Assembly: GCF_030655665.1 (NCBI RefSeq) | Contig: NZ_JAUSPQ010000004.1 | Coordinates: 98,948-130,947, forward strand | Source of the DNA: Methanocorpusculum sp. | Lineage (GTDB): Archaea > Halobacteriota > Methanomicrobia > Methanomicrobiales > Methanocorpusculaceae | Direction of reading: 5' to 3' | Length of the DNA stretch: 32,000 nt | Shown here: positions 1 through 18,602 of the stretch, in pieces | Position numbering within the stretch: the stretch's first letter is position 1 | Layout: every line of letters starts with the position of its first letter | Notes under the pieces: model-generated | What the model saw: only the letters and a program-made list of their open reading frames with translations | Database searches by the model: none | What the model was told of the DNA's origin: nothing | Position numbers and translations under genes: made by a program

Positions 1-1964
1 TCTTTGAGTTCGCGGCGGATCGCACGGCCCGAACGGGACGTCCCGGTGGTGATCTTGTCGATGTCGAGAGACCCGGTCTTCGCATCGTATGCCACCTGTC
101 TCAGACAGGTATCCACGATCTTGACCACACGCTCTGCATCCTCCCGGTCGACCTCATCGGCAAGACGCACGCGGGCACTTGCTTCTGCGAGCCGGACGAG
201 TGCTTCCAGTTGTCGTGCGGTGATCGGGACCGGTTTGTCGGAGTTTTCGTAGGCGACGCTTCTAAGACTCTGATAATACTGGACAAGAACTTCCTTCGCT
301 TCCTCTTTCAAAAGAGGGAAGCAGTTACGCTTTGCGTAGGCCAGATACTTTCGGAGCATGGACGCATCGATCTCCGGCGTGACCGGAGCGAGTTCGCGTT
401 TGAAGTACTCCTCATCCGCTCCCGGGATCGGGTACTTTTTGTGCCGCATCAGTTTTTCACCGGCCGAGTGGGCCTTGATGATGTGGCGTGCGATGTTGAG
501 ATCTCTCACAGCATCCGGCTGATCCTTCATGATGAAGATGAGATCGAAACGGGAGAGAAGGGACGGCGGCATGTTGATCTGTTCGGAGATGTTGGCATAC
601 TCGTCGAATCGTCCAAGCTTCGGGTTCGCAGCGCCGAGAAGGGAACAGCGTGTCCTGAGCGTAGCATTTATGCCGGCTTTTGCGATGGAGACCGACTGCT
701 GTTCCATCGCTTCATGCAGCGAGGAACGGTCGTCTTTTTGCATCTTGTCCATCTCATCGACTGCAGCGATACCTTTGTCTGCGAGAACGAGTGCTCCGGC
801 TTCGAGCGTCCAGCGACCGTCTCCCAAATCATCTTTGACCGCAGCGGCCGTCAGACCTGCCGAGGAAGCGGATTTTCCCGATGTGTAAATACCACGGGGA
901 GCAAGTTTGATGACGTATCGAAGCAGCTGGGACTTTGCAATACCCGGGTCACCTACGAGAAGGATATGGATATCGCCGCGAAGATTTGTGCCGTCGGGCA
1001 TTTCTTTCGGGATCCCGCCGAACATCTGGAGAGCGATCGCCTCTTTGACCTCTTCGTTTCCGTAAATAGTTGGAGCGATCGACCGGGCGATCTTGCCGTA
1101 GACACCCGGATCAGAGGCCATCTCTTTGATTGCGGTCTCATCCTCCTCCGAGATGTTGACCTCTTCGAATTCCTTGATGGAGATCTCGATCGAGTTGCAT
1201 TCGAGGTAGAGATCGAAAACAGTACTCTTCTGACCGCTGACGATCCGCTGGACACTGCGTAATATCCCATTCACAATGACGCGGTCGCCCGGCGAGACTT
1301 TCCCGCAGAGATCGTCGATCTCGTCGATGTCGATGTTCTGGGGCTGCTCGCCGCCGCGTAACCCTTCGGGCGTCTCCTGCACCCGGAGTTTCTGCGAGTC
1401 GATGAAGGTCGATTTGCTCTGGACGAGCTCGAGCTTTTTCAGCGTACACTCGGCATGTCCGCACATATCAGGCTCGGAATACGAGCCGTAATCCTGCTTT
1501 TTGAAGGTGATATGACCGTTCACACAGCGGAATGCTCCGGTGACAAGTCGGGGACGGACCTCGGTGACCCGGCGCACGATTCCGTCGATGCTGAGAAATT
1601 TATTGATATCTTCTGCACGGATGTCCCTGATCTGGGTCTTTCGCGGAAGACGGATGAACCTGATATTGACTTTGCCGATGATCGTGTCGGAGATGTCGTT
1701 TCCTTCGACATCTTTTCCGGTGATGAGGTGTGAGGTCCGGATGGCGTCTTTTACATCTTCTAAGGTCTTACCCGGATGTTCGAGCAACTCGTCCGCGAGA
1801 ACGACACCTATTTTTCCGTATTTTTCGAGGACCCCATAGTCTATCTCAAGGGAACGTTCGCTTGGGTATTCACGGGAGATCTTATTGAGTTCACTTTTGT
1901 ATTTCTTTTTCAGAAACCCGGTCCACTCCTCGACCCGGTCTACGACTTCCAGTTCAACTGCCAT
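1..1964 (-). CDS. mcm: MCM replicative helicase (archaeal minichromosome maintenance protein); N-terminus at 1964, C-terminus beyond the window
   Basis: Absent from the supplied ORF track because it has no stop inside the window. Reading the minus strand from ATG 1964 (aggagg just upstream) gives an open frame down to position 3: MAVELEVVDRVEEW... It carries Walker A GDPGIAKSQ, Walker B AAVDEMDKM, SRFDLIF (arginine-finger region), and Zn-finger-like CVNGH...CGHAEC. The + strand ORFs 210..1262, 529..888 and others are antisense shadows. Confidence 0.93.
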   Translation of the reverse strand, partial: MAVELEVVDRVEEWTGFLKKKYKSELNKISREYPSERSLEIDYGVLEKYGKIGVVLADELLEHPGKTLEDVKDAIRTSHLITGKDVEGNDISDTIIGKVNIRFIRLPRKTQIRDIRAEDINKFLSIDGIVRRVTEVRPRLVTGAFRCVNGHITFKKQDYGSYSEPDMCGHAECTLKKLELVQSKSTFIDSQKLRVQETPEGLRGGEQPQNIDIDEIDDLCGKVSPGDRVIVNGILRSVQRIVSGQKSTVFDLYLECNSIEISIKEFEEVNISEEDETAIKEMASDPGVYGKIARSIAPTIYGNEEVKEAIALQMFGGIPKEMPDGTNLRGDIHILLVGDPGIAKSQLLRYVIKLAPRGIYTSGKSASSAGLTAAAVKDDLGDGRWTLEAGALVLADKGIAAVDEMDKMQKDDRSSLHEAMEQQSVSIAKAGINATLRTRCSLLGAANPKLGRFDEYANISEQINMPPSLLSRFDLIFIMKDQPDAVRDLNIARHIIKAHSAGEKLMRHKKYPIPGADEEYFKRELAPVTPEIDASMLRKYLAYAKRNCFPLLKEEAKEVLVQYYQSLRSVAYENSDKPVPITARQLEALVRLAEASARVRLADEVDREDAERVVKIVDTCLRQVAYDAKTGSLDIDKITTGTSRSGRAIRRELK

Positions 1965-2018
1965 GTTCCTCCTTATCGTTATACTTTGGCGTCGGGAGAT
2001 ATGAATATATTATGACAT

Positions 2019-2435
2019 TCAGCATTGAGTAACCAGATACGAGGCCGTGGTTTTTGAAAGAAGATCGCCGTCGACACTGCCGCGTCTGACCTCTGCTTCG
2101 GCGAAGATGATGCGTCTCCCTTTCCGGATGATCTTTGCGACGGCGAAGATCTCGTCGTCTTTTGTTCCGCGTATGAACTCTGTCGTTTCCGAGATCGTCG
2201 TGGTGCCGGACCCGGGATCGAGTTCTGCTAAAATCGCAAGCGCGATCGCTTCGTCCGCGAGGATGACGTAAAATCCTCCCTGCAGAAACCCGACGCCGTT
2301 GTGAAGTTTATCCGAGGCGTTCATTTTGAGAACGGCCGTACCGCCGCCCCATGAGACCGGGGTGATCCCAAGGGTCATGAAGGTAGGGTTCGCGGCCGCG
2401 CCTATCGATGCGATCTTTTCTGCGTATTCGTGCAT
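2019..2435 (-). CDS. Hotdog-fold thioesterase (PaaI-like)
   Basis: 138-aa ORF. The central HNGVGFLQGGFYVILADEAIALA segment and overall size match PaaI/4HBT-type thioesterases. Called by motif recall only. Confidence 0.7.
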   Translation of the reverse strand: MHEYAEKIASIGAAANPTFMTLGITPVSWGGGTAVLKMNASDKLHNGVGFLQGGFYVILADEAIALAILAELDPGSGTTTISETTEFIRGTKDDEIFAVAKIIRKGRRIIFAEAEVRRGSVDGDLLSKTTASYLVTQC

Positions 2436-2524
2436 GTGAATAGATTCTCTTTCCGGGAAAAAGAGAGTTCCGATTTTCTGCTTCGACGGACAGGTCTAAA
2501 TAGGCTACGGAATAATACTCCAGC

Positions 2525-3892
2525 ATGCAACCATCTCTCGACGTGAGAAACCCTGCCACGAATGAAGTCATCGGCACTATACATAACGCCACGCCCGATG
2601 ATGTAGACAATTTTGTGAATGCTGCCGCGGACATCCTGCCGTCCTGGGAAAAGACGGCGGCATCGAAGCGTGCCGTGATGTTTGTGAATGCCGCGGCCCT
2701 GATTAGGGCACGGGCTGACGATCTCGCCGTTCTGCTGACGACCGAGCAGGGAAAACCTCTGCGTGAGGCCAAGGACGAGATCCTCGGATCCGCTCATGTG
2801 TTCGAGTATTATGCCTCGGTCTCTGGGAGTATCCCGGGTGATGCCCGGAATCTTCCGGGATACGGGTATCTGAATGTTGTCAGAAAACCGCTCGGCATCT
2901 GTGCCGCGATCATTCCCTGGAACATGCCGGTGATGATCTTTGCCTGGAAGGTAGGGGCCGCACTCACCTGCGGGAATACCGTTCTCGCAAAACCCTCGAA
3001 GACCGCGTCCCTCACGATCCTGAAGATCGCGGAGGCCATGCATGATGGAGGTTTTCCAAAAAAAGTTCTCCAGGTCGTGACCGGATCCGGCGAAGGGACC
3101 GGTTCTGCGCTTGTCACCCACCCGGATATCCGGCACATCTCGTTTACGGGCTCGATTATGTCGGGAAAAGCAGTTTCACTTCTCGCGGCCCCGCATCTGA
3201 AAAAACTGACGCTGGAACTTGGCGGGAACGACAGTTTCATCGTGACGAAAACGGCCGATGTCGACGCCGCGGTAAAAGCAGCGGTCAGGAACCGGTTCTA
3301 CAACTGCGGGCAGGTCTGCACATCGGCAAAGCGGATACTGGTGGATGCATCGCTTGCCGATGAATTCGTCCGCAAAGCGGAGATCATGCTTTCCGGCTAC
3401 GTTGTGGGGAACGGTCTTGACAAAGTGAACATGGGCCCAATGAACAATCCGGGTCAGCTGGCAGAGATCGAGGCTTCGGTCGAGAGTATCCTCGCAAACG
3501 GCGATGCTCAGCTGGTTTACGGCGGGAAAAAACTGGACATGCCCGGAAACTTCTATGCTCCAACACTGCTGAAGAATGTGAGTCCGCTCGCGGTCTCCGA
3601 AGAGATCTTCGGGCCGGTGATGTCGGTGATCCCATTCAAGAACGCGGATGAAGCTCTGGATATTGCAAACTCAACGGTTTACGGTCTGGGCTCTTCGGTC
3701 TGGACATCGGATATCGCGACGGCCCAAAACTTCGCCGAGTCGCTGAGATGCGGGGTCGTCTGGGTGAACAAGCATCTGACCCTTCCGCCGGAGATGCCGT
3801 TTGGAGGGGTCGCAAGCTCCGGGTTCGGACGGGAAAACGGGCGGGACTTCGTGTATGAGTACACGGAGCCGAAGAGTATTTTGTTTGGGTGA
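2525..3892 (+). CDS. NAD(P)-dependent aldehyde dehydrogenase family protein
   Basis: 455-aa ORF with IPWNMP, FTGS, LELGGND and the catalytic-Cys segment FYNCGQVCTSAKR, plus PFGG near the C-terminus. These are the classical ALDH superfamily motifs. Confidence 0.9.
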   Translation: MQPSLDVRNPATNEVIGTIHNATPDDVDNFVNAAADILPSWEKTAASKRAVMFVNAAALIRARADDLAVLLTTEQGKPLREAKDEILGSAHVFEYYASVSGSIPGDARNLPGYGYLNVVRKPLGICAAIIPWNMPVMIFAWKVGAALTCGNTVLAKPSKTASLTILKIAEAMHDGGFPKKVLQVVTGSGEGTGSALVTHPDIRHISFTGSIMSGKAVSLLAAPHLKKLTLELGGNDSFIVTKTADVDAAVKAAVRNRFYNCGQVCTSAKRILVDASLADEFVRKAEIMLSGYVVGNGLDKVNMGPMNNPGQLAEIEASVESILANGDAQLVYGGKKLDMPGNFYAPTLLKNVSPLAVSEEIFGPVMSVIPFKNADEALDIANSTVYGLGSSVWTSDIATAQNFAESLRCGVVWVNKHLTLPPEMPFGGVASSGFGRENGRDFVYEYTEPKSILFG

Positions 3893-3925
3893 AGCGGGTT
3901 GGCGACGAAGTCGACGACCTCAGCG

Positions 3926-3947
3926 GAGCAAATCTTTGATTTGCGAC
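3926..3947. repeat. Dispersed hairpin element, copy 1 (gagcaaatctttgatttgcgac)
   Basis: 7-bp inverted repeat gcaaatc/gatttgc around 3 nt. It is the reverse complement of the copy at 24539..24559. Confidence 0.8.
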
Positions 3948-3987
3948 TGCGGGGAGGAGCCGACTGGCTCGCCCTCAGTTGAGGGTT

Positions 3988-4010
3988 TCCGCTTTCAGCG
4001 TCCACCCCGC
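3988..4010. repeat. 23-nt direct repeat, copy 1 (tccgctttcagcgtccaccccgc)
   Basis: Repeated at 4219..4241 with one mismatch. Preceded by the palindrome ccctcagttgaggg. Confidence 0.8.
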
Positions 4011-4101
4011 AAATCCGCGATAAGAAGGAAATGGAAATAGATCGTTGAGATTGTAAATCCGACTGGGTTTTTCCATCTCATGTTTTTCACCGGCGGGCAT
4101 C

Positions 4102-4140
4102 ACACGAAATTCACGAAAATAATACGAAAACACGAAAAAA
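4102..4140. repeat. Cluster of ACGAAA short repeats
   Basis: acgaaa occurs at 4104, 4113, 4124 and 4132. The block acgaaattcacgaaaa recurs at 4267..4282. Confidence 0.7.
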
Positions 4141-4185
4141 GAAAATCAGCTGGGTGTTGACCCCTATCTTACCCTCCCCCGTCCC

Positions 4186-4207
4186 TCGCAAGTCTATCGA
4201 CTTGCTC
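4186..4207. repeat. Dispersed hairpin element, variant copy (tcgcaagtctatcgacttgctc)
   Basis: Same tc-gcaaNtc...gaNttgc-tc frame as the other copies. The stem has a compensatory A>G / T>C change (gcaagtc/gacttgc). Confidence 0.7.
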
Positions 4208-4218
4208 GGCTGAGGTCG

Positions 4219-4241
4219 TCCGCTTTCAGCGTCCAACCCGC
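4219..4241. repeat. 23-nt direct repeat, copy 2 (tccgctttcagcgtccaacccgc)
   Basis: Matches 3988..4010 apart from one base. Confidence 0.8.
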
Positions 4242-4437
4242 CCCCACACCAAATCCACAAAAATCAACGAAATTCACGAAAAGGGGGGACAGGGGTGGGG
4301 GAATGGCAACTCTTCTTTTTTCAAAAGGAGGTGGTGTGAGCTCTTTTCTTATTCGGGGTGCGGGGAAGTGACTGCGGGCTGCCCCATAGGGGCGGCCTCA
4401 GCTGAGGCTGGGTGAGCCGATAGGCTCGCCCTCAGCG

Positions 4438-4458: not shown

Positions 4459-4581
4459 TCCGGCGCGGAGCGTCCCGCGGTGGAGATATCTTTTTTTTTT
4501 GATTCGGAAGAGGTTTTTTTTCTCTTTTTTGCGGGAGTGTACGTCGGTTTCGTGTACAGGATTATTATGGAATCATAAGAT

Positions 4582-4772
4582 AAAACCAACCGCGAACCGC
4601 AAATCAGAGATTTGCTCTCCGACTCGCTTCGCTCGCTTGAATCGGCACGAATCTCGCCCTTCGGGCTCTCAGAATCGGATTTGCTATTCCTCACTCTCGC
4701 AATCCAGCTACGCTGTCTTGCTCCTCCCTCATCGGGAACGTTCGGGCAAATCCTGTCTCCGCCCCAGCGGCT
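4582..4772. repeat. Left arm of a long imperfect inverted repeat flanking the AT-rich cassette
   Basis: The reverse complement of 6804..6947 aligns by eye with this arm. Shared blocks are ccaaccgcgaa, cgcccttcgggc, gaatcggatttgctattcctcact, cttgctcctccctcatcggga, cgttcgggcaaatcctgtc and gcggct. The left arm has an extra ~43 nt (about 4597..4638). Confidence 0.85.
4597..4617. repeat. Dispersed hairpin element, copy inside the left arm (ccgcaaatcagagatttgctc)
   Basis: Stem gcaaatc/gatttgc. It lies in the segment that is present in the left arm but missing from the right arm. Confidence 0.75.
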
Positions 4773-10758: not shown

Positions 10759-10835
10759 ACGAAATCCATACGCAAGGTCCCGCAGAAACCATAATATCAC
10801 ACGCAGAACCTCTAATCTGATAAGGAATACCCGGC

Positions 10836-11216
10836 ATGTTTCAAAAAATACGACGTCTCTTCGCTGACCCGCCTCAACCGGCAGAAATCTGCCAGCCACA
10901 AAATACTACCCCTGAGCAGATCATCGAAAGACTGGAGAGAGAAGCGGCAGAAGGGAAGGTCGACGCGATCTACCTGCTCGGCATGGCATATTATTCCGTG
11001 GACGGTGCGGCAAAGGATCCCGGGCAGGCAAAAGCGTGGTTTGAAAAAGCAGCTGCAGAGGGAAATACTGCGGCCATGCGGAACCTTGCCGAGATGTATA
11101 CGGCCGGTAACGGAGTGGAAAAAGATCCCGTGAAAGCAAAAGAATGGGTGCGAAAAGCAGAAGAGATCGAGATAATGCTCAAAGCTCTCGGGTTGGTCTG
11201 GGGTGTCGCGGAATGA
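10836..11216 (+). CDS. Sel1-repeat (TPR-like) protein
   Basis: Two Sel1-type repeats: AIYLLGMAYYSVDGAAKDPGQAKAWFEKAAAEG and AMRNLAEMYTAGNGVEKDPVKAKEWVRKA. Confidence 0.8.
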   Translation: MFQKIRRLFADPPQPAEICQPQNTTPEQIIERLEREAAEGKVDAIYLLGMAYYSVDGAAKDPGQAKAWFEKAAAEGNTAAMRNLAEMYTAGNGVEKDPVKAKEWVRKAEEIEIMLKALGLVWGVAE

Positions 11217-11259
11217 TGCCGGAAACCGATTCCCGAAAAAGGGTCATACAGTCCAGTTG

Positions 11260-11301
11260 AAAATCATTATATGCAAATATGTGCATATAGTAATATATGT
11301 C
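11260..11301 (+). promoter_or_regulatory. Promoter/operator block, copy A (upstream of hgcA), containing the palindrome TATATGCA-N6-TGCATATA
   Basis: 42 nt aaaatcattatatgcaaatatgtgcatata[g]taatatatgtc, identical to 13026..13067 except one base. The perfect 8-bp inverted repeat is at 11268..11275 / 11282..11289. The A/T-rich part can double as a TATA box. Confidence 0.6.
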
Positions 11302-11344
11302 ATCACTGTGTCTTTACGAAGCAAAAGATCCTGACAAAATGTGA
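11297..11344 (+). pseudogene. Remnant of the arsD-like gene (15 codons)
   Basis: atgtcatcactgtgtctttacgaagcaaaagatcctgacaaaatgtga aligns with the 5' end of 13063.. (MSSLCLYEAKDPDKM* vs MSSMVIFESKTPDKTT...). Confidence 0.6.
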
Positions 11345-11463
11345 TACAAACCCCTACATTTCCCGAAACGATCTTCAAAGCATTCGGCGATGTAAGCAGA
11401 CTTTGGATACTTTCCCTCCTGCAGGATCACGTAGCCTCACGATCCTCTGAAAAATGTGATTAA
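11341..11463 (+). pseudogene. Internally deleted arsR remnant (40 codons, HTH removed)
   Basis: 11365..11392 and 11414..11431 match arsR 13400..13427 and 13449..13466. 11438..11463 matches the arsR 3' end 13710..13735. About 243 nt of arsR (13467..13709) is replaced by 6 nt and the frame is kept: ..PETIFKAFGDVSRLWILSLLQDH|VASRSSEKCD*. Confidence 0.7.
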
Positions 11464-11465
11464 TC

Positions 11466-12539
11466 ATGACCGAAGAAAATAATACCTCAATATTTGAAAC
11501 GAAGAAGAAAACGATCACCGGGACGCAGACCTGCGGATGCGCTGACAACTGTTGCGAGACCCCTGCGATCCAGACGACCACGAGCAAGATCATCTTCGCT
11601 GACAGGCTTGACCATCTCCTTGCCCGGTTGGGCTGGAACCGGTTAAACCACAGCGTCGAACCCGGCCTGTACCGGCTCGGAGATCCGGATGCAGAATCCC
11701 CGGTTTTTGCATCGGCAAACTATACCCTGAGCTTTGATGCCCTCCGTTCCTCTCTTGCAGGGATCGATGCATGGATCCTTGTCCTGGATACGAAGGGGAT
11801 CAATGTCTGGTGTGCTGCCGGAAAAGGGACGTTTGGGACAGATGAACTCGTCCACAGAATAGAATCCACAGGCCTTGCCGGTATCGTCTCGCACCGTAAG
11901 ATCATCGTGCCCCAACTTGGAGCACCGGGTGTCTTCTGGCCGGAAGTGGTGCAGAGGACGAAGTTCATTGTCGAGTACGGTCCGGTCCGGGCAAACGACC
12001 TGCCGGAGTACCTGAAAACGCACACGGCGACCCCTGACATGCGGTGTGTCAAGTTTTCCTTGCGGGACCGGCTGGTACTGACGCCTGTTGAATTCATGCA
12101 CTTTGCGCTCCCGACCGTAGCAATATCAGCGGCCCTCTGGTTCCTTGCCGGGCCTTTTGCAGCACTTGCCGCGGTATCAGCGGTCCTTTCCGGGACCGTA
12201 CTCTTTCCACTGCTGCTGCCCGTTATCCCAACACGGGACTTTTCGACCAAAGGGATGATCCTTGGCGTGATCGTATCCCTTCCCTTCGCATATGTTTTCG
12301 GGACAACGCCAGGACTACCGATGTGGGCCGGGGCCCTTTCAGCGGTTGCAGCCCTTCTCCTCATCCCGGCGGTGATCGCGTATCTTGCCCTGAATTTCAC
12401 CGGCTGCTCAACGTTCACCTCACGGATGGGGGTCAAAAAGGAGATCTTCTCGTATGTCAAGGTCATGGCGGGAATGGCGGCAGTCGGCGTGATAAGCGGC
12501 ATTATTCTTGGCGTATCAAAGATCATGGGGGTGATCTGA
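11466..12539 (+). CDS. hgcA: HgcA, corrinoid protein of the mercury-methylation pair
   Basis: Diagnostic cap-helix motif NVWCAAGK at nt 11802..11825 in the context LVLDTKGINVWCAAGKGTFGTDEL. Upstream is PGLYRLGDPDAESPVFASANYTLSFDALR. The C-terminal half is hydrophobic (several TM helices). It is followed immediately by a 2x[4Fe-4S] ferredoxin. Confidence 0.88.
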   Translation: MTEENNTSIFETKKKTITGTQTCGCADNCCETPAIQTTTSKIIFADRLDHLLARLGWNRLNHSVEPGLYRLGDPDAESPVFASANYTLSFDALRSSLAGIDAWILVLDTKGINVWCAAGKGTFGTDELVHRIESTGLAGIVSHRKIIVPQLGAPGVFWPEVVQRTKFIVEYGPVRANDLPEYLKTHTATPDMRCVKFSLRDRLVLTPVEFMHFALPTVAISAALWFLAGPFAALAAVSAVLSGTVLFPLLLPVIPTRDFSTKGMILGVIVSLPFAYVFGTTPGLPMWAGALSAVAALLLIPAVIAYLALNFTGCSTFTSRMGVKKEIFSYVKVMAGMAAVGVISGIILGVSKIMGVI

Positions 12540-12889
12540 TGTTCAATTCCTATACCGAAACCAGCCTTTCCTTTGATTCGGCGCTTTGTATAAACTGCAA
12601 ACGCTGCACGCAGGTCTGTCCCCATGCGGTCTTTACTGCAGGCCCGACATGTGTATCCCTCGATCGGCCGTCTGCCTGCATGGAATGCGGAGCCTGCGCT
12701 CTCAACTGCCCTGTCCAGGCAATAACCGTTCAGAGCGGGGTCGGCTGTGCGTGGGCGATGATCGGTGCCGCGCTCCGGGGAAAGGATATGGACACAGAAT
12801 CCTGCTGCGGTGAGAACGGTTCGTGCTGCGGGAATTCCGGATCGAAACAAAAAGCCTCGGTCTGCGATTGCGGAAAGAAGGAGCGATAA
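12539..12889 (+). CDS. hgcB: HgcB, 2x[4Fe-4S] ferredoxin partner of HgcA
   Basis: ATG 12539 overlaps the hgcA stop (tgATG). It has CINCKRCTQVCP and CMECGACALNCP cluster motifs and a Cys-rich tail (SCCGENGSCCG...CDCG). The longer track ORF 12323..12889 is an in-frame upstream extension overlapping hgcA. Confidence 0.85.
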   Translation: MFNSYTETSLSFDSALCINCKRCTQVCPHAVFTAGPTCVSLDRPSACMECGACALNCPVQAITVQSGVGCAWAMIGAALRGKDMDTESCCGENGSCCGNSGSKQKASVCDCGKKER

Positions 12890-13025
12890 CTGGTATTTTG
12901 GAGCAGAGCCCTGCATTTGGGGGTACTCTCTGAAAAACCCGGATGAACACAGGGTCTGAACCCTATTTCAAAAATCTATTTTTTACCGTGAGCACCGTTT
13001 AGGGATCAGTCATACATTCTCTTTC

Positions 13026-13067
13026 AAAATCATTATATGCAAATATGTGCATATAATAATATATGTC
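13026..13067 (+). promoter_or_regulatory. Promoter/operator block, copy B (upstream of the ars operon), with the palindrome TATATGCA-N6-TGCATATA
   Basis: Same 42-nt block as 11260..11301, with the palindrome at 13034..13041 / 13048..13055. The A/T box is about 25-30 nt upstream of ATG 13063, which suggests a leaderless or very short-leader transcript with the operator overlapping the core promoter. Confidence 0.6.
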
Positions 13068-13395
13068 GTCGATGGTTATTTTTGAATCAAAAACCCCTGA
13101 CAAAACCACGTATGAGTATCTCCAGACAACTGAACTCATAGACAAACTCAATCCCTCAGGAATTGAGATTTCCCGTGCAATCTGGGATACAAACACCAAC
13201 GTCCGCCATCTTGTAGAGAAACATGGTGAAGAAATTCTTCCGGCAGTGGTGGTAAATGATTTCATCATGATCACCGGAAGATACCCGTCAAAAGAAGAAA
13301 TCAGACAGATTCTTCATGTACCTGACAAACTTATCGCAGAAGAATGCCAGGGATGCGGGTGTTGTTGTATCCAGGGATACGAATGCGATGAGTGA
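13063..13395 (+). CDS. ArsD-like (thioredoxin-fold arsenic metallochaperone family) protein with an atypical Cys pattern
   Basis: The segment VRHLVEKHGEEILPAVVVNDFIMITGRYPSKEEIRQIL resembles the ArsD core (..LP..L.DGE.V..GRYP...EL). The usual N-terminal CC/C motif is absent, and a C-terminal CQGCGCCCIQGYEC tail is present. Confidence 0.55.
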   Translation: MSSMVIFESKTPDKTTYEYLQTTELIDKLNPSGIEISRAIWDTNTNVRHLVEKHGEEILPAVVVNDFIMITGRYPSKEEIRQILHVPDKLIAEECQGCGCCCIQGYECDE

Positions 13396-13735
13396 TCCAG
13401 AAACGATCTTCAAAGCATTCGGCGATGCGACCCGACTTCGGATCCTTGCCCTCCTGCAGGATCACGAGTTATGCGTTTGCGAGATCGAAGCAGCACTCTC
13501 CCTCTCCCAGCCCAACGCATCACGCAGCCTGACGATCCTGAAAAACGCTGGCATCATCCAGAGCAGAAAACAGGCACAATGGACCTACTACAAAATCAGC
13601 GATGATTTTTCCGCCGTCTACCCTGACCTTTCCAGAGCCCTGGAAAACATCTGTGCCGGATTGCCGTCGACAAATGCAGACAAAGACGCCTTGAAAAAAT
13701 GCAGACAAACACGATCCTGCGAAAAATGTGATTAA
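13388..13735 (+). CDS. arsR: ArsR-family metalloregulator
   Basis: The start MSDPETIFKAFGDATRLRILALLQDHELCVCEIEAAL contains the ELCVCE metal-binding motif and an HTH. ATG 13388 overlaps the arsD-like stop (ATGAGTGA). The track ORF start at 13316 is an upstream extension. Confidence 0.88.
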   Translation: MSDPETIFKAFGDATRLRILALLQDHELCVCEIEAALSLSQPNASRSLTILKNAGIIQSRKQAQWTYYKISDDFSAVYPDLSRALENICAGLPSTNADKDALKKCRQTRSCEKCD

Positions 13736-13737
13736 TC

Positions 13738-13911
13738 ATGACCGAAGAAAAAAAGACCTCAATATTTGGAAAGATGAAGAAAGCGATCACCGGAGAAAAC
13801 TGCTCCTGCTGCTGTAATATCAAAATTGTGCCGGAAAAACCCGGATGTGATGACGAAGCCGGGTCGAAAGACCAATGCGGAGAAAACTGCAGCTGCCGTA
13901 AATCTGAATGA
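13738..13911 (+). CDS. 57-aa Cys-rich small protein (not in the ORF track)
   Basis: MTEEKKTSIFGKMKKAITGENCSCCCNIKIVPEKPGCDDEAGSKDQCGENCSCRKSE has 9 Cys. It starts 2 nt after the arsR stop, and its stop overlaps the permease start (ATGA at 13908..13911). The first ~19 codons are duplicated as the N-terminus of hgcA. Confidence 0.55.
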   Translation: MTEEKKTSIFGKMKKAITGENCSCCCNIKIVPEKPGCDDEAGSKDQCGENCSCRKSE

Positions 13912-14789
13912 GTTTTGTGGATACGCTCCTCGCGGCCGGTCAGTATTTCCTGATCATAGCCCTGGAGCTTACAGCACTATTCATCGTCGTCTGTCTGATC
14001 GTCGGGGCACTGAACGTCTATGTCCCCAAAGAGAAGATGCAGAAGGTCCTCGGGCACTCCGGCTCGGTCAGGGGAAGCGTTATCGGGGCGGCGTTCGGTG
14101 CAATAACCCCATTCTGCTCCTGCTCGACGATCCCGGTCACCCTGGGATTTCTGAAGTCAGGCGTGGCATTTTCCAGTGCCATGTCCTTCCTTTTCGCGTC
14201 CCCGCTTCTGAACCCGGTCATTCTCGCGATGATGCTCGTCATATTCGGACCCGAGATCACCATCGTGTATGCGGTCCTGATGTTCACTCTAGCCGTATTG
14301 ATCGGGCTGACCCTTGACAAGCTCAGGTTCAAAAAATACGTCAAACCGGTCGCGGTCGAAGGAATGACCGAAGAGACCGGCACAAAACTACAGAGGATCG
14401 TCGGGTTTGCCTGGACCACGTTCCGACAGATGATCCCCTATCTCCTGCTCGGAGCAGCGATCGGCGCATTCATCTACGGATTTCTGCCGGCCGACTGGAT
14501 CCTGGCCGTCGCGGGACCAGAAAACCTGTTCGCGATTCCTGTCGCCGCGCTCATCGGGATCCCGCTCTATATCAGAGCAGAGACAATTCTCCCGATCAGT
14601 GCCGCCCTCTTAAGCAAAGGAATGGGGGCGGGGACCGTGGCCGCCCTTCTGATCGGCGGGGCAGGCATGAGTATCCCCGAGATCACCATGCTTTCGGCGA
14701 TCTTTAAGAAACAGTTCGTTCTGGTGTTTGTCGCAACGATCTTTATTTCGGCCGTGGTGACCGGATTAGTCGTGCAGGTGATCATATGA
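13908..14789 (+). CDS. arsP: ArsP-type permease (PF03773-like predicted permease)
   Basis: 293-aa polytopic membrane protein with the GAITPFCSCSTIPV vicinal-Cys motif characteristic of ArsP-like permeases. Sits in an ars operon context. Confidence 0.75.
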   Translation: MSFVDTLLAAGQYFLIIALELTALFIVVCLIVGALNVYVPKEKMQKVLGHSGSVRGSVIGAAFGAITPFCSCSTIPVTLGFLKSGVAFSSAMSFLFASPLLNPVILAMMLVIFGPEITIVYAVLMFTLAVLIGLTLDKLRFKKYVKPVAVEGMTEETGTKLQRIVGFAWTTFRQMIPYLLLGAAIGAFIYGFLPADWILAVAGPENLFAIPVAALIGIPLYIRAETILPISAALLSKGMGAGTVAALLIGGAGMSIPEITMLSAIFKKQFVLVFVATIFISAVVTGLVVQVII

Positions 14790-15163
14790 AACGTATCGCC
14801 TTTCTCTGCGTCAAAAACTCCTGCAGATCACAGATAGCCGAAGCTCTCTGCCAGCATCTCGGCGGCGATATCTTCATCTGTTATTCGGCAGGCAGTGATC
14901 CGGGCGAATCCGTCGACCCGACGGCGATCCGGTTCATGCAGGAACATTACGGGATCGATATGCGTGGAATGAGTCCGAAACCTATCTCCGATCTGCCGAA
15001 GATCGACATCGTTGTCACGATGGGCTGCGGGGTCGCCTGCCCCGTCATTCCCGGAACACGGCGGATCGAATGGCATATCGACGACCCGGTCGGAAAAGGA
15101 GACGAGGCGTATCGTTTGGCGATCACTGAAATAGAAGCAAATATAAAAACATTGATAGAGTGA
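14786..15163 (+). CDS. arsC: Arsenate reductase, low-molecular-weight phosphatase type
   Basis: CX5R P-loop in IAFLCVKNSCRSQIAEAL, 125 aa. The start overlaps the permease stop (ATGA). Confidence 0.88.
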   Translation: MKRIAFLCVKNSCRSQIAEALCQHLGGDIFICYSAGSDPGESVDPTAIRFMQEHYGIDMRGMSPKPISDLPKIDIVVTMGCGVACPVIPGTRRIEWHIDDPVGKGDEAYRLAITEIEANIKTLIE

Positions 15164-15167
15164 TGTT

Positions 15168-16226
15168 ATGACAGAGAACAGCAGCGCAGGAATCGGGATA
15201 TTCGGCAAATATCTTACCATCTGGGTGATCATCTGCATGATCATCGGGGTTATGATCGGCAAATTCCTACCGTTCATCCCGAAATTTCTCGGAACGTTCG
15301 AGTATGCCGGTGTTTCGATCCCCATCGCGATACTCATCTGGGTAATGATCTACCCGATGATGCTGAAAGTGGATTTTCAGAGCATCAAATATGTCGGAAA
15401 AAATCCAAAAGGACTCGTTCTCACCTGGGTCGTGAACTGGCTGATCAAACCCTTCACGATGTTTGCGATCGCCGGATTCTTCTTCTATATCGTATTCAGT
15501 GCCCTCATCCCTGCCGGCCTTGCGCAGGATTATCTTATCGGCGCCGTGCTTTTAGGTGCAGCTCCGTGTACGGCAATGGTGTTCGTCTGGAGTTATCTGA
15601 CGAAAGGAAACGCCGCCTATACGGTCGTCCAGGTCGCAACGAATGATCTGATCATTCTTGTCGCATTCGTCCCGATCGTCGCATTCCTGCTCGGGATAAG
15701 CGGCATCAGTGTTCCGTGGGCCACCCTGTTCCTTTCGGTCGTCCTGTTTGTCGTGATCCCCCTCCTGGGCGGGGTCATAACACGGATGTATCTCATCAGG
15801 AAAAAAGGAGAGGAGTATTTTACCCGGACATTCCTCCCGAAGTTCGACCATATCACCATCATCGGTCTGCTGCTCACCCTCGTGATCATTTTTTCGTTCC
15901 AGGGAACGGTTATTCTGGAAAATCCACTGCACATTCTTCTGATCGCCGTGCCGCTGATCATTCAGACCGTGCTGATATTTTTTATCACCTACGGAGCAGG
16001 CAGGCTGTTGAACCTTCCTCACAGCATCGCAGCCCCGGCAGGTATGATCGGCGCCTCGAACTTCTTTGAATTGGCCGTCGCGGTATCGATCGCGCTGTTT
16101 GGAACCAACAGTCCGGTCGCTCTCGCGACGATCGTCGGGGTCCTGGTCGAAGTTCCGGTCATGCTGATGCTCGTGAAAATCGCAAACGCCACAAAAGACC
16201 GGTTCCCGAATACGGATCTGGACTGA
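15168..16226 (+). CDS. acr3: ACR3-family arsenite efflux transporter
   Basis: 352-aa ~10-TM protein with the conserved LLGAAPCTAMVFVW segment. Confidence 0.9.
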   Translation: MTENSSAGIGIFGKYLTIWVIICMIIGVMIGKFLPFIPKFLGTFEYAGVSIPIAILIWVMIYPMMLKVDFQSIKYVGKNPKGLVLTWVVNWLIKPFTMFAIAGFFFYIVFSALIPAGLAQDYLIGAVLLGAAPCTAMVFVWSYLTKGNAAYTVVQVATNDLIILVAFVPIVAFLLGISGISVPWATLFLSVVLFVVIPLLGGVITRMYLIRKKGEEYFTRTFLPKFDHITIIGLLLTLVIIFSFQGTVILENPLHILLIAVPLIIQTVLIFFITYGAGRLLNLPHSIAAPAGMIGASNFFELAVAVSIALFGTNSPVALATIVGVLVEVPVMLMLVKIANATKDRFPNTDLD

Positions 16227-16227
16227 G

Positions 16228-16620
16228 TTACATTTTTGCAGGTTCTTCAGCGAAGATCCTGCCCTTTTCCGTTATCCTGTAGATGATCCAGTTCCCCTGC
16301 TGTTCAGATACGATCAGACCATTCTCCTTCATGATATTCAGATGATAGGAGAGTTTCGATCCTGAAATCCCGATACACTCCCGAATCACACAGACACACA
16401 GCGGCTGGATCGTGAGGAGACAGAGAATAGTAATACGAACCGTATCGGATAATGCGTGATGCGTCGAGCTTATTTCCTCAATTTGTTCCGGAGAGGGTAA
16501 ACGTTCGCGGAGTCCTTTCACGCCGCCAACTGCGTTTAGATCGCACCGGATTATCTCAGGAATCCCGGACCGTGAAATCGGCTCTATAGTGGATTTTGCT
16601 GATGGGTTTTTGATTGTCAT
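16228..16620 (-). CDS. arsR: Second ArsR-family regulator
   Basis: The segment RITILCLLTIQPLCVCVIRECIGISGSKLSYHLNIMKENGLI has a CVC motif plus an HTH. Divergent from the permease at 16729. Confidence 0.85.
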   Translation of the reverse strand: MTIKNPSAKSTIEPISRSGIPEIIRCDLNAVGGVKGLRERLPSPEQIEEISSTHHALSDTVRITILCLLTIQPLCVCVIRECIGISGSKLSYHLNIMKENGLIVSEQQGNWIIYRITEKGRIFAEEPAKM

Positions 16621-16728
16621 ATTATGTCTGAGCTATTTCAAATTATTATGAAATGCATAGATATAAATAATTTCTCAGACAATAATGAGTTCAATAAAAA
16701 TTGAAATCGTTTTGTGAGAGGTGAAAAA

Positions 16729-17799
16729 ATGCTAGATTTACTAATCGGCTCACTCCTGCTTGGATGGGAGACCCTGCTGGGGTATTTATCCCAACATGTT
16801 GTGACATGCCTTATTCCTGCGTTCTTCATCGCCGGCGCAATTGCAACATTTATCAAAAAAGATGCAATTCTCAAATACTTCAGCCCGGAGACGAATAAGC
16901 TTGTATCTTATGGTATCGCGTCAATTTCCGGCACCGTACTTGCGGTTTGCAGCTGCACGATCCTGCCGATGTTTGCCGGCATTCTCAAAAAAGGGAGCGG
17001 ACTTGGACCTGCCATTACGTTCCTCGTTGCGGGACCTGCAATCAACATTCTTGCGATCATCTACACTGCTCAGGTACTTGGACTCGATCTTGGTCTCGCA
17101 CGGGCATTAGCGGCCGTAGTTATTTCAATTTTGATCGGATTGATTATGATGAAGCTGTTTCCCGCTCACGATACTGAGACGAGAAAGACGTTCGGAGCAG
17201 CACGCAAAGCCGCGATCGCGAGCGAAGCTACCCGGCCAAAATGGGTCGTTCCGGTATTCTTTGTCTTACTGGTTGCGATTCTTCTGGTCGGAACTTCTGC
17301 ATTAGATGCTTTTATCCGACTCTTCATTGTGTTCTTAATCACGATTGTGATCGCCTATCTGCTGATTTACTATTTCACCCGTGATGAAGTAACCGACTGG
17401 GGGATGGAGATCTGGGACCTGACGAAAAAAATCTTCCCGATTCTCATTATAGGTACATTTGCTCTTGGTGTCCTTTCGTTCTTCCTTCCGGCAGAAGTGT
17501 TCAAACCATTCATTGGCGACAACTCAATTCTTGCAAATTTGTTTGCTGCCCTTGTAGGAACGATCCTCTATATGCCGACACTTCTTGAAGTTCCGGTCAT
17601 TGGAACAACACTGGGATACCTGACAGGATCCATGGCGAAAGGCCCTGCCCTCGCACTTCTCCTCACCGGCCCTACAGTCAGCCTGCCGAGTCTTCTTGTT
17701 CTCTATCGTCTCATCGGCGGAAAGAAGACGGTGGTCTATGTATGTCTGATCATAGTTTTTGCGACCATAGCAGGTTTTGTCTTCGGGAATGTATTCTAA
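16729..17799 (+). CDS. Second PF03773-type permease
   Basis: Has the SGTVLAVCSCTILPMFAG motif and is polytopic. ATG 16729 is preceded by gaggtga (SD-like). The track start GTG 16714 is less likely. Confidence 0.75.
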   Translation: MLDLLIGSLLLGWETLLGYLSQHVVTCLIPAFFIAGAIATFIKKDAILKYFSPETNKLVSYGIASISGTVLAVCSCTILPMFAGILKKGSGLGPAITFLVAGPAINILAIIYTAQVLGLDLGLARALAAVVISILIGLIMMKLFPAHDTETRKTFGAARKAAIASEATRPKWVVPVFFVLLVAILLVGTSALDAFIRLFIVFLITIVIAYLLIYYFTRDEVTDWGMEIWDLTKKIFPILIIGTFALGVLSFFLPAEVFKPFIGDNSILANLFAALVGTILYMPTLLEVPVIGTTLGYLTGSMAKGPALALLLTGPTVSLPSLLVLYRLIGGKKTVVYVCLIIVFATIAGFVFGNVF

Positions 17800-17903
17800 G
17801 GAGGCATAAAAAATCAGGAAGGATAGAAAGAAACAGCAGGGAAGAGTTGATTCCCTTCCCAAAAACCTATTACAAAAAAAATTGAATATACACTGGAACT
17901 ATT

Positions 17904-18140
17904 ATGACAAAAATTGAAATTCTCGGAACAGGATGTGCAAAATGCAAACGGCTTTTTGCCAACACCGAACAGGCTGTAAAAGAACTGAATATTACCGTCG
18001 ATCTGGTCAAGATCGAAAAGCTTGATCAGATCGCCGAACGCGGCGTGATGATGACGCCTGCCCTGATCATTAATGATGAGATCGTGGCCGAAGGCCGGGT
18101 CGCGGATGTGAAAGAGATCAAAGCATTGTTAACGGAGTGA
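17904..18140 (+). CDS. Thioredoxin-fold 'redox-active disulfide protein 2'-like protein
   Basis: 78 aa, MTKIEILGTGCAKCKRL with a GCxxC motif. Its pairing with a PF03773 permease is a recurrent gene neighbourhood. Confidence 0.75.
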   Translation: MTKIEILGTGCAKCKRLFANTEQAVKELNITVDLVKIEKLDQIAERGVMMTPALIINDEIVAEGRVADVKEIKALLTE

Positions 18141-18146
18141 AAAAGT

Positions 18147-18602
18147 ATGACAGAAAAACCAACATGTTCGTGCGGACAGAATGAACCAAAACGGCTTCTC
18201 TTCCCATGTGCCGGCCAGTCAAACACCGGACAGATCACAAACCTCGCAGCGATTCAGCTGACGGAAGAAGGCTATGGAAAAATAGTCTGTACTTCACTCC
18301 TTGCAACCGGTAGTGAAGGACTGGTAAAATCTGCAAGAGATGCGGAAGAAGTAGTTGCTCTTGACGGCTGCCCAATGTCCTGTGCAGCAAAGATCGCAGA
18401 GGGACAAGGCGTTGAGGTAGGACAAAAAATTATCGTGACTGAACTTGGAATCGCCAAAGGACCGTCAAAATCCTACACGACAGATGATATCGAGAAGGTC
18501 GTCGCTGCCTGCTGGGCCGGGAATGGGCGAAAGAACGAGCCGGTGAAAAAAGGTTCAGACAATAAAAAATCCACGTGCGGATGCGGCGGATCGTGCAAGT
18601 GA
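18147..18602 (+). CDS. DGC-domain (putative Zn-binding) protein
   Basis: Has the VVALDGCPMSCAAK motif, an N-terminal CSCG...FPCAG, and a C-terminal CGCGGSC. Confidence 0.65.
   Translation: MTEKPTCSCGQNEPKRLLFPCAGQSNTGQITNLAAIQLTEEGYGKIVCTSLLATGSEGLVKSARDAEEVVALDGCPMSCAAKIAEGQGVEVGQKIIVTELGIAKGPSKSYTTDDIEKVVAACWAGNGRKNEPVKKGSDNKKSTCGCGGSCK

Follow-up and report, generated by a model that had tools for sequence, protein, structure and literature searches.

In a stretch of Methanocorpusculum DNA, the mercury-methylation gene hgcA opens with codons that also open a small open reading frame (ORF) of a neighbouring ars operon, which raises the question of how the two came to share a start and what this means for the control of hgcAB. 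The stretch, referred to throughout as the window, comprises 32,000 nucleotides (nt) of contig NZ_JAUSPQ010000004.1 from Methanocorpusculum sp. (assembly GCF_030655665.1); positions given without a locus name are window positions, features lie on the plus strand unless stated otherwise, and family assignments follow the curated cut-offs of Pfam and NCBIfam. As the original prediction had proposed from the sequence alone, hgcA (11466-12539) is preceded by a miniature copy of the ars operon head (promoter, arsD, arsR and small ORF) and uses the start codon and about 19 codons of the small ORF. Comparison with relatives gives us high confidence that a segmental duplication with in-frame fusion produced this state. 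The explanation that we favour as a whole, with more modest confidence, is that hgcAB thereby exchanged its N-terminus and captured an ArsR-controlled promoter, here called P1 to distinguish it from the intact ars promoter P2. Such a capture probably puts mercury methylation under arsenic control.

The duplicate was delimited by ungapped blocks from a repeat finder, while a global MAFFT alignment, which misaligned across the large deletions, was not relied on. Three collinear blocks at 81-90% identity tie the region upstream of hgcA to the ars operon head, as had been predicted, with the homology beginning 17 nt further upstream than proposed, at 11243. Block A holds P1 and the first ~14 arsD codons (11243-11339 against 13009-13105; 97 nt, 81%), a second block matches arsR codons 3-26 (11361-11431 against 13396-13466; 71 nt, 89%), and the third covers the arsR 3' end and the start of the small ORF (11438-11521 against 13710-13793; 84 nt, 90%). 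The predicted near-identity of a 42-nt core (11260-11301, recurring at 13026-13067 with one mismatch) was recovered, as was the identical 31-nt junction, GAAAAATGTGATTAATCATGACCGAAGAAAA, which occurs exactly twice, at 11449 and 13721; for either repeat, the number expected in shuffled sequence is 0. Two remnant ORFs also lie where they had been placed. The first, arsD' (11297-11344, 15 codons, reading MSSLCLYEAKDPDKM and then stop), joins the arsD 5' end (codons 1-14) to a 23-nt internal arsD fragment (11335-11357, matching 13178-13200), and is closer to the arsD 5' ends of the related loci L001 and L003 than to the window's own arsD. The second, arsR' (11341-11463, 40 codons from a fortuitous GTG start), is recognised by the repeat blocks, has no family match and begins at arsR codon 3, with the arsR ATG, CVC site and helix-turn-helix all gone. 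The removal of the CVC site and helix-turn-helix thus agrees with the original prediction, but its single in-frame loss of about 243 nt resolves into two deletions, one of 58 nt between ATCACG repeats (13461-13466 and 13519-13524) and one of 179 nt between ACGATCCTG repeats (13532 and 13711), which together remove 237 nt and leave ~20 nt between them (11432-11452) read out of frame.

Past the second deletion the arsR 3' end is intact through its TAA stop (11453-11463) and is followed by the ATG at 11466. This end carries a Shine-Dalgarno-like motif read from the sequence, GTGAT (11456-11460), 5 nt ahead of the hgcA ATG, which we take to be complementary to the 16S 3' end; the small ORF is served by the same motif at 13728-13732. 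The borrowed ATG and 19 codons, MTEENNTSIFETKKKTITG (11466-11522), were identified from the 84-nt block, from 120 HgcA N-termini and from comparison of the DNA at the joint. The fusion joint lies within one codon past G19 and ahead of the HgcA residues QTCGC, such that small-ORF codons 1-19 are followed by one variable codon (T, M or A) and then by QTCGC, with a GGA microhomology where the two sequences meet (small ORF ACCGGA/GAAAAC, hgcA AAAGGA/CAGACA). The Cys clusters that follow the shared N-terminus in both proteins, which had been taken as part of the homology, do not belong to it, because QTCGC...C is part of the ancestral HgcA N-terminus and lies just past the joint.

The fused gene remains a recognisable hgcA. 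Its 357-residue product (MDO9522444.1) scores 434.9 bits against the NCBIfam HgcA equivalog NF040863 (cut-off 275) and carries the cap-helix motif N(V/I)WCA(A/G)GK with its conserved Cys, as GINVWCAAGKGTFG in the translation (NVWCAAGK). Since the model covers residues 35-347, the swapped N-terminal part is not within the conserved core. Ahead of codon 54 the frame holds no further ATG, GTG or TTG, and a start at codon 54 would cut into that core, so 11466 is the hgcA start. The adjoining hgcB (12539-12889, 116 aa) overlaps the hgcA stop in TGATG, scores 103.4 bits against NCBIfam HgcB NF040864 (cut-off 99) and encodes two CX2CX2CX3C motifs, CINCKRCTQVCP and CMECGACALNCP.

The ancestral order was examined in relatives through 120 listed HgcA homologs and a tblastn map of 80 species-level loci, with loci given L numbers and HgcA clusters P numbers. 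Most Methanomicrobiales HgcAs among the 120 listed are ~356 aa long and begin M..(GS)CxC......C.C....IRTTDS, an ordinary Cys-rich N-terminus, while an N-terminus of the form MTEE(N/K/E).T... appears in only 8 of the 120 listed clusters (P0001-5, P0008-10) and likewise in members P0134, P0135 and P0137 of the window's own cluster. Among these fused HgcAs, other sequence stands in place of the first Cys cluster, and the second (QTCGC..C) is kept. The original prediction had asked whether orthologues share the MTEE start regardless of ars genes, and whether relatives carry the extension with its upstream remnants; most of the Methanomicrobiales orthologues listed have the ordinary start, only a small set of HgcA clusters in the window's group carries the extension, and upstream remnants are seen in relatives with the fusion. 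A gene for the AbrB-like HgcC (NCBIfam NF040962, "HgcAB-associated protein HgcC"; 128 bits against a cut-off of 70) stands directly upstream of hgcA in 41 of the 80 species loci, and ArsR occupies that place in 9, mostly from Chloroflexi; in the 32-kb window, tblastn with HgcC gave zero matches. From these sequences the ancestral state is read as hgcC directly upstream of hgcA, and in the window's group a copy of Sel1, ars promoter, arsD, arsR and small-ORF codons 1-19 is read as the replacement of hgcC and ~17 hgcA codons.

Two relatives mark the path between these states. In L003 (GCA_002506085.1), whose HgcA has an ordinary N-terminus and is 85% identical over the aligned 94% of the query, the order is Imm5-hgcC-hgcA-hgcB-Sel1-ars promoter-arsD-arsR-small ORF-arsP-arsC-acr3, with the ars promoter directly after the Sel1 stop, just as P1 follows the window's Sel1-repeat gene (copy 1, 10836-11216, the left part of the duplicated unit; Pfam Sel1 3e-15). 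In L084/L085 (GCA_029987365.1), which has the fused N-terminus, the order is Imm5-Sel1-328-nt remnant-hgcA-hgcB-Sel1'-P2-arsD-arsR-small ORF-arsP, where the Sel1' after hgcB is nearly full-length, frameshifted and ~70% identical to the first Sel1. If the unit from hgcA codon ~18 to small-ORF codon ~19 was duplicated, a Sel1 copy is expected on either side of hgcAB, as seen here. The unduplicated order in L003 and the two Sel1 copies kept in L085 thus show that segmental duplication was the cause, in line with the original prediction.

The direction of transfer, which the original prediction rightly considered undecidable from the window alone, is resolved by these relatives as very probably from the ars operon to hgcA. 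The small ORF belongs to a family of 13 homolog clusters, all from "Methanocorpusculum sp." metagenome-assembled genomes or metagenome records, in which the N-terminus MTEEKKTSIFGK.KKA is invariant, including in L003 and L004, where HgcA begins in the ordinary way. The same 19 residues drift among the fused HgcAs (MTEENNTSIFETKKKTITG, MTEEKNTSICETTKNTIPG, MTEENTTPICGEKKTIPRA). An invariant donor and a drifting recipient point to a transfer from small ORF to hgcA followed by relaxed constraint on the peptide.

From the ancestral order hgcC-hgcA-hgcB-Sel1-ars promoter-arsD-arsR-small ORF-arsP, a segmental duplication very probably joined small-ORF codon 19/20 to hgcA, in frame, at about codon 18. 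Most simply, a tandem duplication from hgcA codon ~18 to small-ORF codon ~19 would have been followed by loss of the hgcC-hgcAB copy lying upstream; replacement through a single template switch would lead to the same outcome. By either route hgcAB lost hgcC, its own promoter and the first Cys cluster, and gained Sel1, the ars promoter, arsD and arsR, the 3' end of arsR including the GTGAT ribosome-binding motif, and the small-ORF ATG with 19 codons, after which the redundant upstream arsD and arsR eroded through lineage-specific, microhomology-mediated deletions. No remains of a deleted hgcC-hgcAB copy were seen between Imm5 and Sel1, so that the sequences fit tandem duplication with loss and one-step duplicative replacement alike.

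The erosion can be followed through four remnant states, S1-S4, whose junctions lie at short direct repeats and are nested, with several of them independent; the deletion series was aligned without L092, whose remnant was read from its own sequence. In S1 (L085) the promoter is retained, the arsD' ATG has become ATA, ~110 nt of internal arsD remain and arsR' carries the window's two deletions. S2 (window, L095, L092) adds a further deletion, TTTCCCGA^AACGAT, and L092, whose HgcA is 97% identical to that of the window, has an additional frame-breaking 11-nt deletion in arsR'. In S3 (L094) the whole stretch between two AAAATGTRAT repeats is missing and the Shine-Dalgarno-like motif reads GTAAT, and in S4 (L001, L086, L088, L090, L093) arsD is deleted between CCCGGATAYGAA repeats and arsR at GATCC^TG. 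The arsR' deletion junctions are common to the window, L085 and L095. Every lineage keeps the promoter and palindrome block, ~40 nt from the former 5' end of arsD, and the hgcA ATG with the borrowed codons, with GTGAT kept in L085, L095, L092, L001, L086, L088 and L090. The remnant ORFs fare otherwise: the arsD' ATG is lost in 6 of 7 P1 copies, L085 has TGA inside arsR' where the window reads TCA, and arsR' is absent altogether from L001, L086, L088, L090 and L094. The overlapping stop/start architecture that had been described as retained is therefore real in the window, but it is not conserved in relatives and is incidental.

The retained block contains the presumed hgcAB promoter and presumed ArsR operator. 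The P1 core (11260-11301), defined by its match to P2 and by its palindrome arms, has GAAAAT and ATTATAT in a 32-nt palindrome (11263-11294) that ends at the former arsD ATG (11297); the corresponding P2 core (13026-13067), found with the repeat finder and by comparison with P1, has its palindrome at 13029-13060, abutting the arsD ATG (13063). GAAAAT and ATTATAT would form a B recognition element (BRE)/TATA-like element ~25-30 nt upstream of the arsD ATG, and the abutment of P2 on that ATG points to an arsD mRNA without a leader. The arms ATTATAT...ATATA are the same in each of the 15 P1 and P2 copies, the inner positions vary, and all 7 P1 copies keep ATTATAT-N-ATATA. The near-identity of the 42-nt core in the window was not preserved since the duplication and has a more recent origin. 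Window P1 and P2 are each a mosaic of the P1 and P2 of L092, and both contain a GCATA variant that neither L092 copy has and that recurs in the P1 of L094; in L001 and L085, P1 and P2 differ at at least 5 positions. The mosaic structure and the common variant indicate ongoing exchange of sequence between the copies in the window lineage, and the near-identity is, on this sequence comparison, recent gene conversion between P1 and P2.

These features make P1 the likely working promoter of hgcAB. The hgcAB leader from P1 would measure ~170 nt in the window, against 65-80 nt in the relatives with the shortest remnants, and the palindrome would extend from the TATA element to the start site, where archaeal repressors usually sit. 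A single intact regulator candidate is encoded nearby, 1.9 kb downstream (arsR, 13388-13735, 115 aa). Its product is a winged helix-turn-helix protein of the ArsR family (HTH_5 56 bits, 3.2e-15; NCBIfam metalloregulator NF033788, 89.7 bits against 55) with a Cys pair in helix alpha-3 and a C-terminal Cys cluster; aligned with the SmtB, CzrA and CadC structures, its ELCVCE stands opposite ELCVGD of SmtB helix alpha-3. The ArsR of R773 carries ELCVCDL in the same helix. Since P1 keeps the palindrome of P2, the intact ArsR would repress both promoters, and we regard control of hgcAB by this protein in trans as an even prospect. Under such control, arsenite would relieve the repression of hgcAB and of the ars operon at once, and where relatives have a short spacer between hgcB and P2, transcription from P1 may continue into the ars operon. 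Within the window a T6 run (12979-12984), read from the sequence between hgcB and P2, is a possible archaeal termination signal. The hgcA leader gave no relevant Rfam match at E<=1 and no unusually stable fold (z-score -0.31). A scan for sigma-70 promoters and intrinsic terminators was set aside as not applicable to an archaeon; its sites were no more numerous than in shuffled sequence.

Several observations weigh against this explanation, and most of them would suit a doubtful but serious alternative in which the capture supplied a promoter, ribosome site and start codon with weak or no ArsR control, or in which hgcAB is largely read through from Sel1. The inner operator positions drift among P1 copies and differ between P1 and P2 in L001 and L085; the invariant palindrome arms coincide with TATA-like, AT-rich sequence, such that their survival could reflect promoter function alone; and the interval from the Sel1 stop to P1 has no clear terminator, with no T run in the window comparable to that at 12979-12984, so that read-through from Sel1 is possible. 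In L094, P1-hgcAB is kept although a transposase and no ars operon follows hgcB (a Transposase_mut fragment at L094 3986-4270 lies directly 3' of hgcB, with unrelated genes at the expected site of the ars operon). P1 of the window and L085 are 86% identical and the adjacent pseudogene remnant 91%, which means that P1 is no better conserved than a pseudogene and that conservation alone is no proof of operator function. For the same reason a comparison of P1 with hgcA four-fold degenerate sites was rejected as evidence of selection, the neighbouring remnants being equally conserved and recombination decoupling the 5' region from the hgcA body. Against weak or absent ArsR control stand the palindromic symmetry kept in every P1, the homogenisation of P1 and P2 in the window lineage, and the sparing of the whole palindrome, beyond its TATA half, by every independent deletion. 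A further point against the favoured history is that the tandem model requires an upstream hgcC-hgcAB copy and none turned up in the genomes scanned; the genome and metagenome scans likewise found neither an intact duplicated arsD-arsR upstream of hgcA nor two hgcAB copies.

The other explanations carry far less weight. That hgcAB is a decaying relic, silent or being lost behind a promoter copy as dead as the arsD and arsR remnants, would fit a Sel1-promoter-arsD segment without hgcAB in L091, as P1-P2 recombination would leave; yet all fused lineages retain full-length HgcA and HgcB with their motifs, identity is higher for amino acids (83-84%) than at four-fold sites (65-70%), indicating purifying selection, and the fused allele persists across lineages diverged this far, which together make the relic very unlikely. 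We give still less credence to the reverse transfer, in which the small ORF took its N-terminus from hgcA and which the data contradict. The window alone cannot tell the direction, and an unrelated HgcA, P0092, also begins MTEEKNT; however, most Methanomicrobiales HgcAs among the 120 listed, sister lineages included, combine the Cys-rich start with an upstream hgcC, and the small ORF keeps MTEEKKTSIFGK invariant where the HgcA N-terminus is ordinary. P0092, considered as a second fusion, was rejected, as it has hgcC upstream and its resemblance is hence coincidental. A chimeric join at the repeat during assembly or binning is hardly credible: the source is a metagenome-assembled genome and repeats can misassemble, but the fusion occurs in more than 10 independent assemblies (NCBI, JGI, ENA, Logan) with lineage-specific differences and deletion states. 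The promoter capture with N-terminal swap thus remains the explanation that we prefer.

The captured and ancestral 5' ends also meet among very close strains. L004, which is of the hgcC type and without Sel1, and the fused L086 and L001 are 93-100% identical from ~300 nt into hgcA through arsR and have the same hgcB-P2 junction, while the first 100 nt of hgcA are only ~50% identical. Near-identical bodies with different 5' ends indicate that the two architectures are alleles exchanged among these strains. It is an improbable further step, in our judgement, to see in the hgcC-type and ars-promoter-type hgcAB a segregating regulatory polymorphism whose ars type persists through a role of HgcAB in arsenic handling; one possibility under that proposal would be corrinoid-dependent arsenite methylation with export of the product by the co-regulated ArsP-family permease, and mercury methylation would then be a side reaction of an arsenic-induced enzyme. 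In L091 (4050-6760, against window 10779-15175) the order is Sel1-promoter-arsD-arsR-small ORF-arsP with arsD of the window type (97%), window-like flanks and no hgcAB. It has the look of a locus in which the direct repeats P1 and P2 have recombined, with an hgcAB-free ancestral state as the alternative; if they have, the duplication makes hgcAB easily lost.

Other changes were seen around these loci. An insertion of ~105 nt (GCAGTCGCAAATCAAAGATTTGCTCGCAAGGCAAAGCCTTGCTCGGCTAAGGGACCTAAAGGTCCCCGCC...) interrupts the Sel1 gene in L088 (3345-3455), L093 and L091 (4410-4515) and looks like a small mobile repeat resembling a miniature inverted-repeat transposable element, and a tyrosine integrase gene lies upstream in L088 and L091. 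In L004, Type I restriction-modification genes (hsdS- and hsdM-like, minus strand, 1624-4404) are inserted just upstream of hgcC, where they have replaced the Imm5-like gene except for its 3' end. The hgcC promoter regions of L003 (5610-5660), L004 (4560-4610) and L005 (~4565-4615) have a conserved palindrome of their own, TTCAGAAAATTCTGA-TTTTTCAGAA, beside ATATATAAATA, which may be an HgcC autoregulatory operator, and the HgcC proteins of these three loci have a Cys-rich N-terminus (DCGCSCEPGC). The window's arsD-like product has ~60% amino-acid identity to those of L001, L003 and L004, against 81-83% for ArsR and 91-93% for ArsP, and L091 and L092 carry the same divergent arsD type (96-97%), which suggests allelic replacement of arsD after the duplication. 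An ars gene lies just downstream of hgcB in 16 of the 80 loci; many Methanoregula and other Methanomicrobiales (L009, L011-L013, L017, L018, L021, L022, L027, L029, L035, L039, L040) have an arsC- or acr3-like gene directly 3' of hgcB on the same strand. The neighbourhood of hgcAB and arsenic genes is widespread in Methanomicrobiales, independent of promoter capture.

The ars operon of the window begins with an arsD-like gene (13063-13395, 110 aa) for a thioredoxin-fold protein with a C-terminal Cys cluster. It passes Pfam ArsD (44.3 bits against 27) and falls below the ArsD equivalog NF033727 (35.9 bits against a cut-off of 90), and with zero Cys among its first 90 residues it has no N-terminal Cys12/Cys13/Cys18 As(III) site; for both reasons it is labelled ArsD-like only. 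A 25-nt tandem duplication (80% identity, 13663-13712) in the 3' region of arsR encodes a repeated NADKDALKKCRQT before the C-terminal Cys cluster. The small Cys-rich ORF that donated the hgcA start (13738-13911, 57 aa, without family match) overlaps with its stop the start of an arsP-like gene for an ArsP_1-family permease (13908-14789), and the rest of the operon comprises arsC of the low-molecular-weight phosphatase type (14786-15163) and acr3 (15168-16226). A second metal-resistance-like cluster follows (16228-18602), in which a 130-aa ArsR-family gene on the minus strand (16228-16620) is divergent from a second ArsP_1-family permease (16714-17799), with an AT-rich inverted repeat in the spacer (16621-16713), and is accompanied by a thioredoxin-like gene (17904-18140) and a DGC-domain gene (18147-18602).

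How hgcAB expression is controlled and what HgcAB actually does are questions that mercury biogeochemistry has yet to answer. In bacteria hgcAB often occurs with an ArsR-like regulator and in archaea with HgcC, two patterns that have been taken for distinct regulatory worlds (PMC10349881). The archaeal lineage of the window appears to have been caught switching from the HgcC arrangement to an ars promoter, with intermediate and decay stages in relatives and both alleles in near-identical strains. The locus would thus offer an independent natural link between hgcAB and arsenic, and a ready test system, in which hgcC-type and ars-type strains or metatranscriptomes could be compared for the response of hgcA to arsenite. 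It would also be a clean example of a promoter, a ribosome site and a start codon captured together by duplication and then streamlined. Our literature searches turned up no account of hgcAB with a duplicated ars promoter, a swapped N-terminus or hgcC replaced.

The nearest bacterial counterpart is ArsR2, an ArsR-like regulator whose gene precedes hgcAB in Pseudodesulfovibrio mercurii ND132 and other bacteria and is transcribed together with it (Goni-Urriza 2020; Gionfriddo 2023, 10.1101/2022.10.17.512643); hgcAB of ND132 is arsenic-responsive (10.1101/2022.10.17.512643). The window resembles it in linking hgcAB to an ArsR-family operator or regulator and to arsenic. It differs in that no intact arsR stands immediately upstream of hgcAB, the adjacent arsR being a dead 40-codon remnant, so that any control would act in trans; in that its ArsR is of the classical helix alpha-3 CVC type, unlike the four-Cys ArsR2; and in that the link is recent, arose by duplication within one archaeal lineage and changed the HgcA N-terminus. 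By analogy, the arrangement may nevertheless work like the bacterial one, through a trans-acting regulator. In archaea, the gene for HgcC (AbrB/PrlF/MazE-like) lies directly upstream of hgcAB (Zhang et al. 2023, PMC10349881). The captured segment occupies the same slot 5' of hgcA, and the hgcC arrangement is ancestral in the closest relatives L003, L004 and L005; unlike it, the window has no hgcC-hgcAB pair and fills the slot with Sel1 and the ars promoter remnant.

The comparison extends to the source of the promoter and to the mode of its capture. Classical ars operons such as E. coli R773 arsRDABC are autoregulated by ArsR (and ArsD). The window shares with R773 a palindrome, here a presumed operator, that overlaps the promoter, an ArsR with ELCVC in helix alpha-3 and an operon headed by arsD and arsR, and departs from it in its apparent archaeal BRE/TATA-type promoter, a probably leaderless first gene, the order arsD-arsR, an ArsD-like protein without the N-terminal Cys12/13/18, and a second presumed operator copy that would serve non-ars genes. 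For the mode of capture, a parallel is the rnk-citT promoter-capture module of the Cit+ lineage in the E. coli long-term evolution experiment, reportedly described by Blount and colleagues in 2012. In both cases a segmental duplication makes a new junction and places a gene under a neighbouring promoter; in the window, unlike rnk-citT, the joint falls within two coding sequences and creates an in-frame protein fusion, and the duplication is an old one that has become fixed in several natural lineages and whose redundant copy then eroded.

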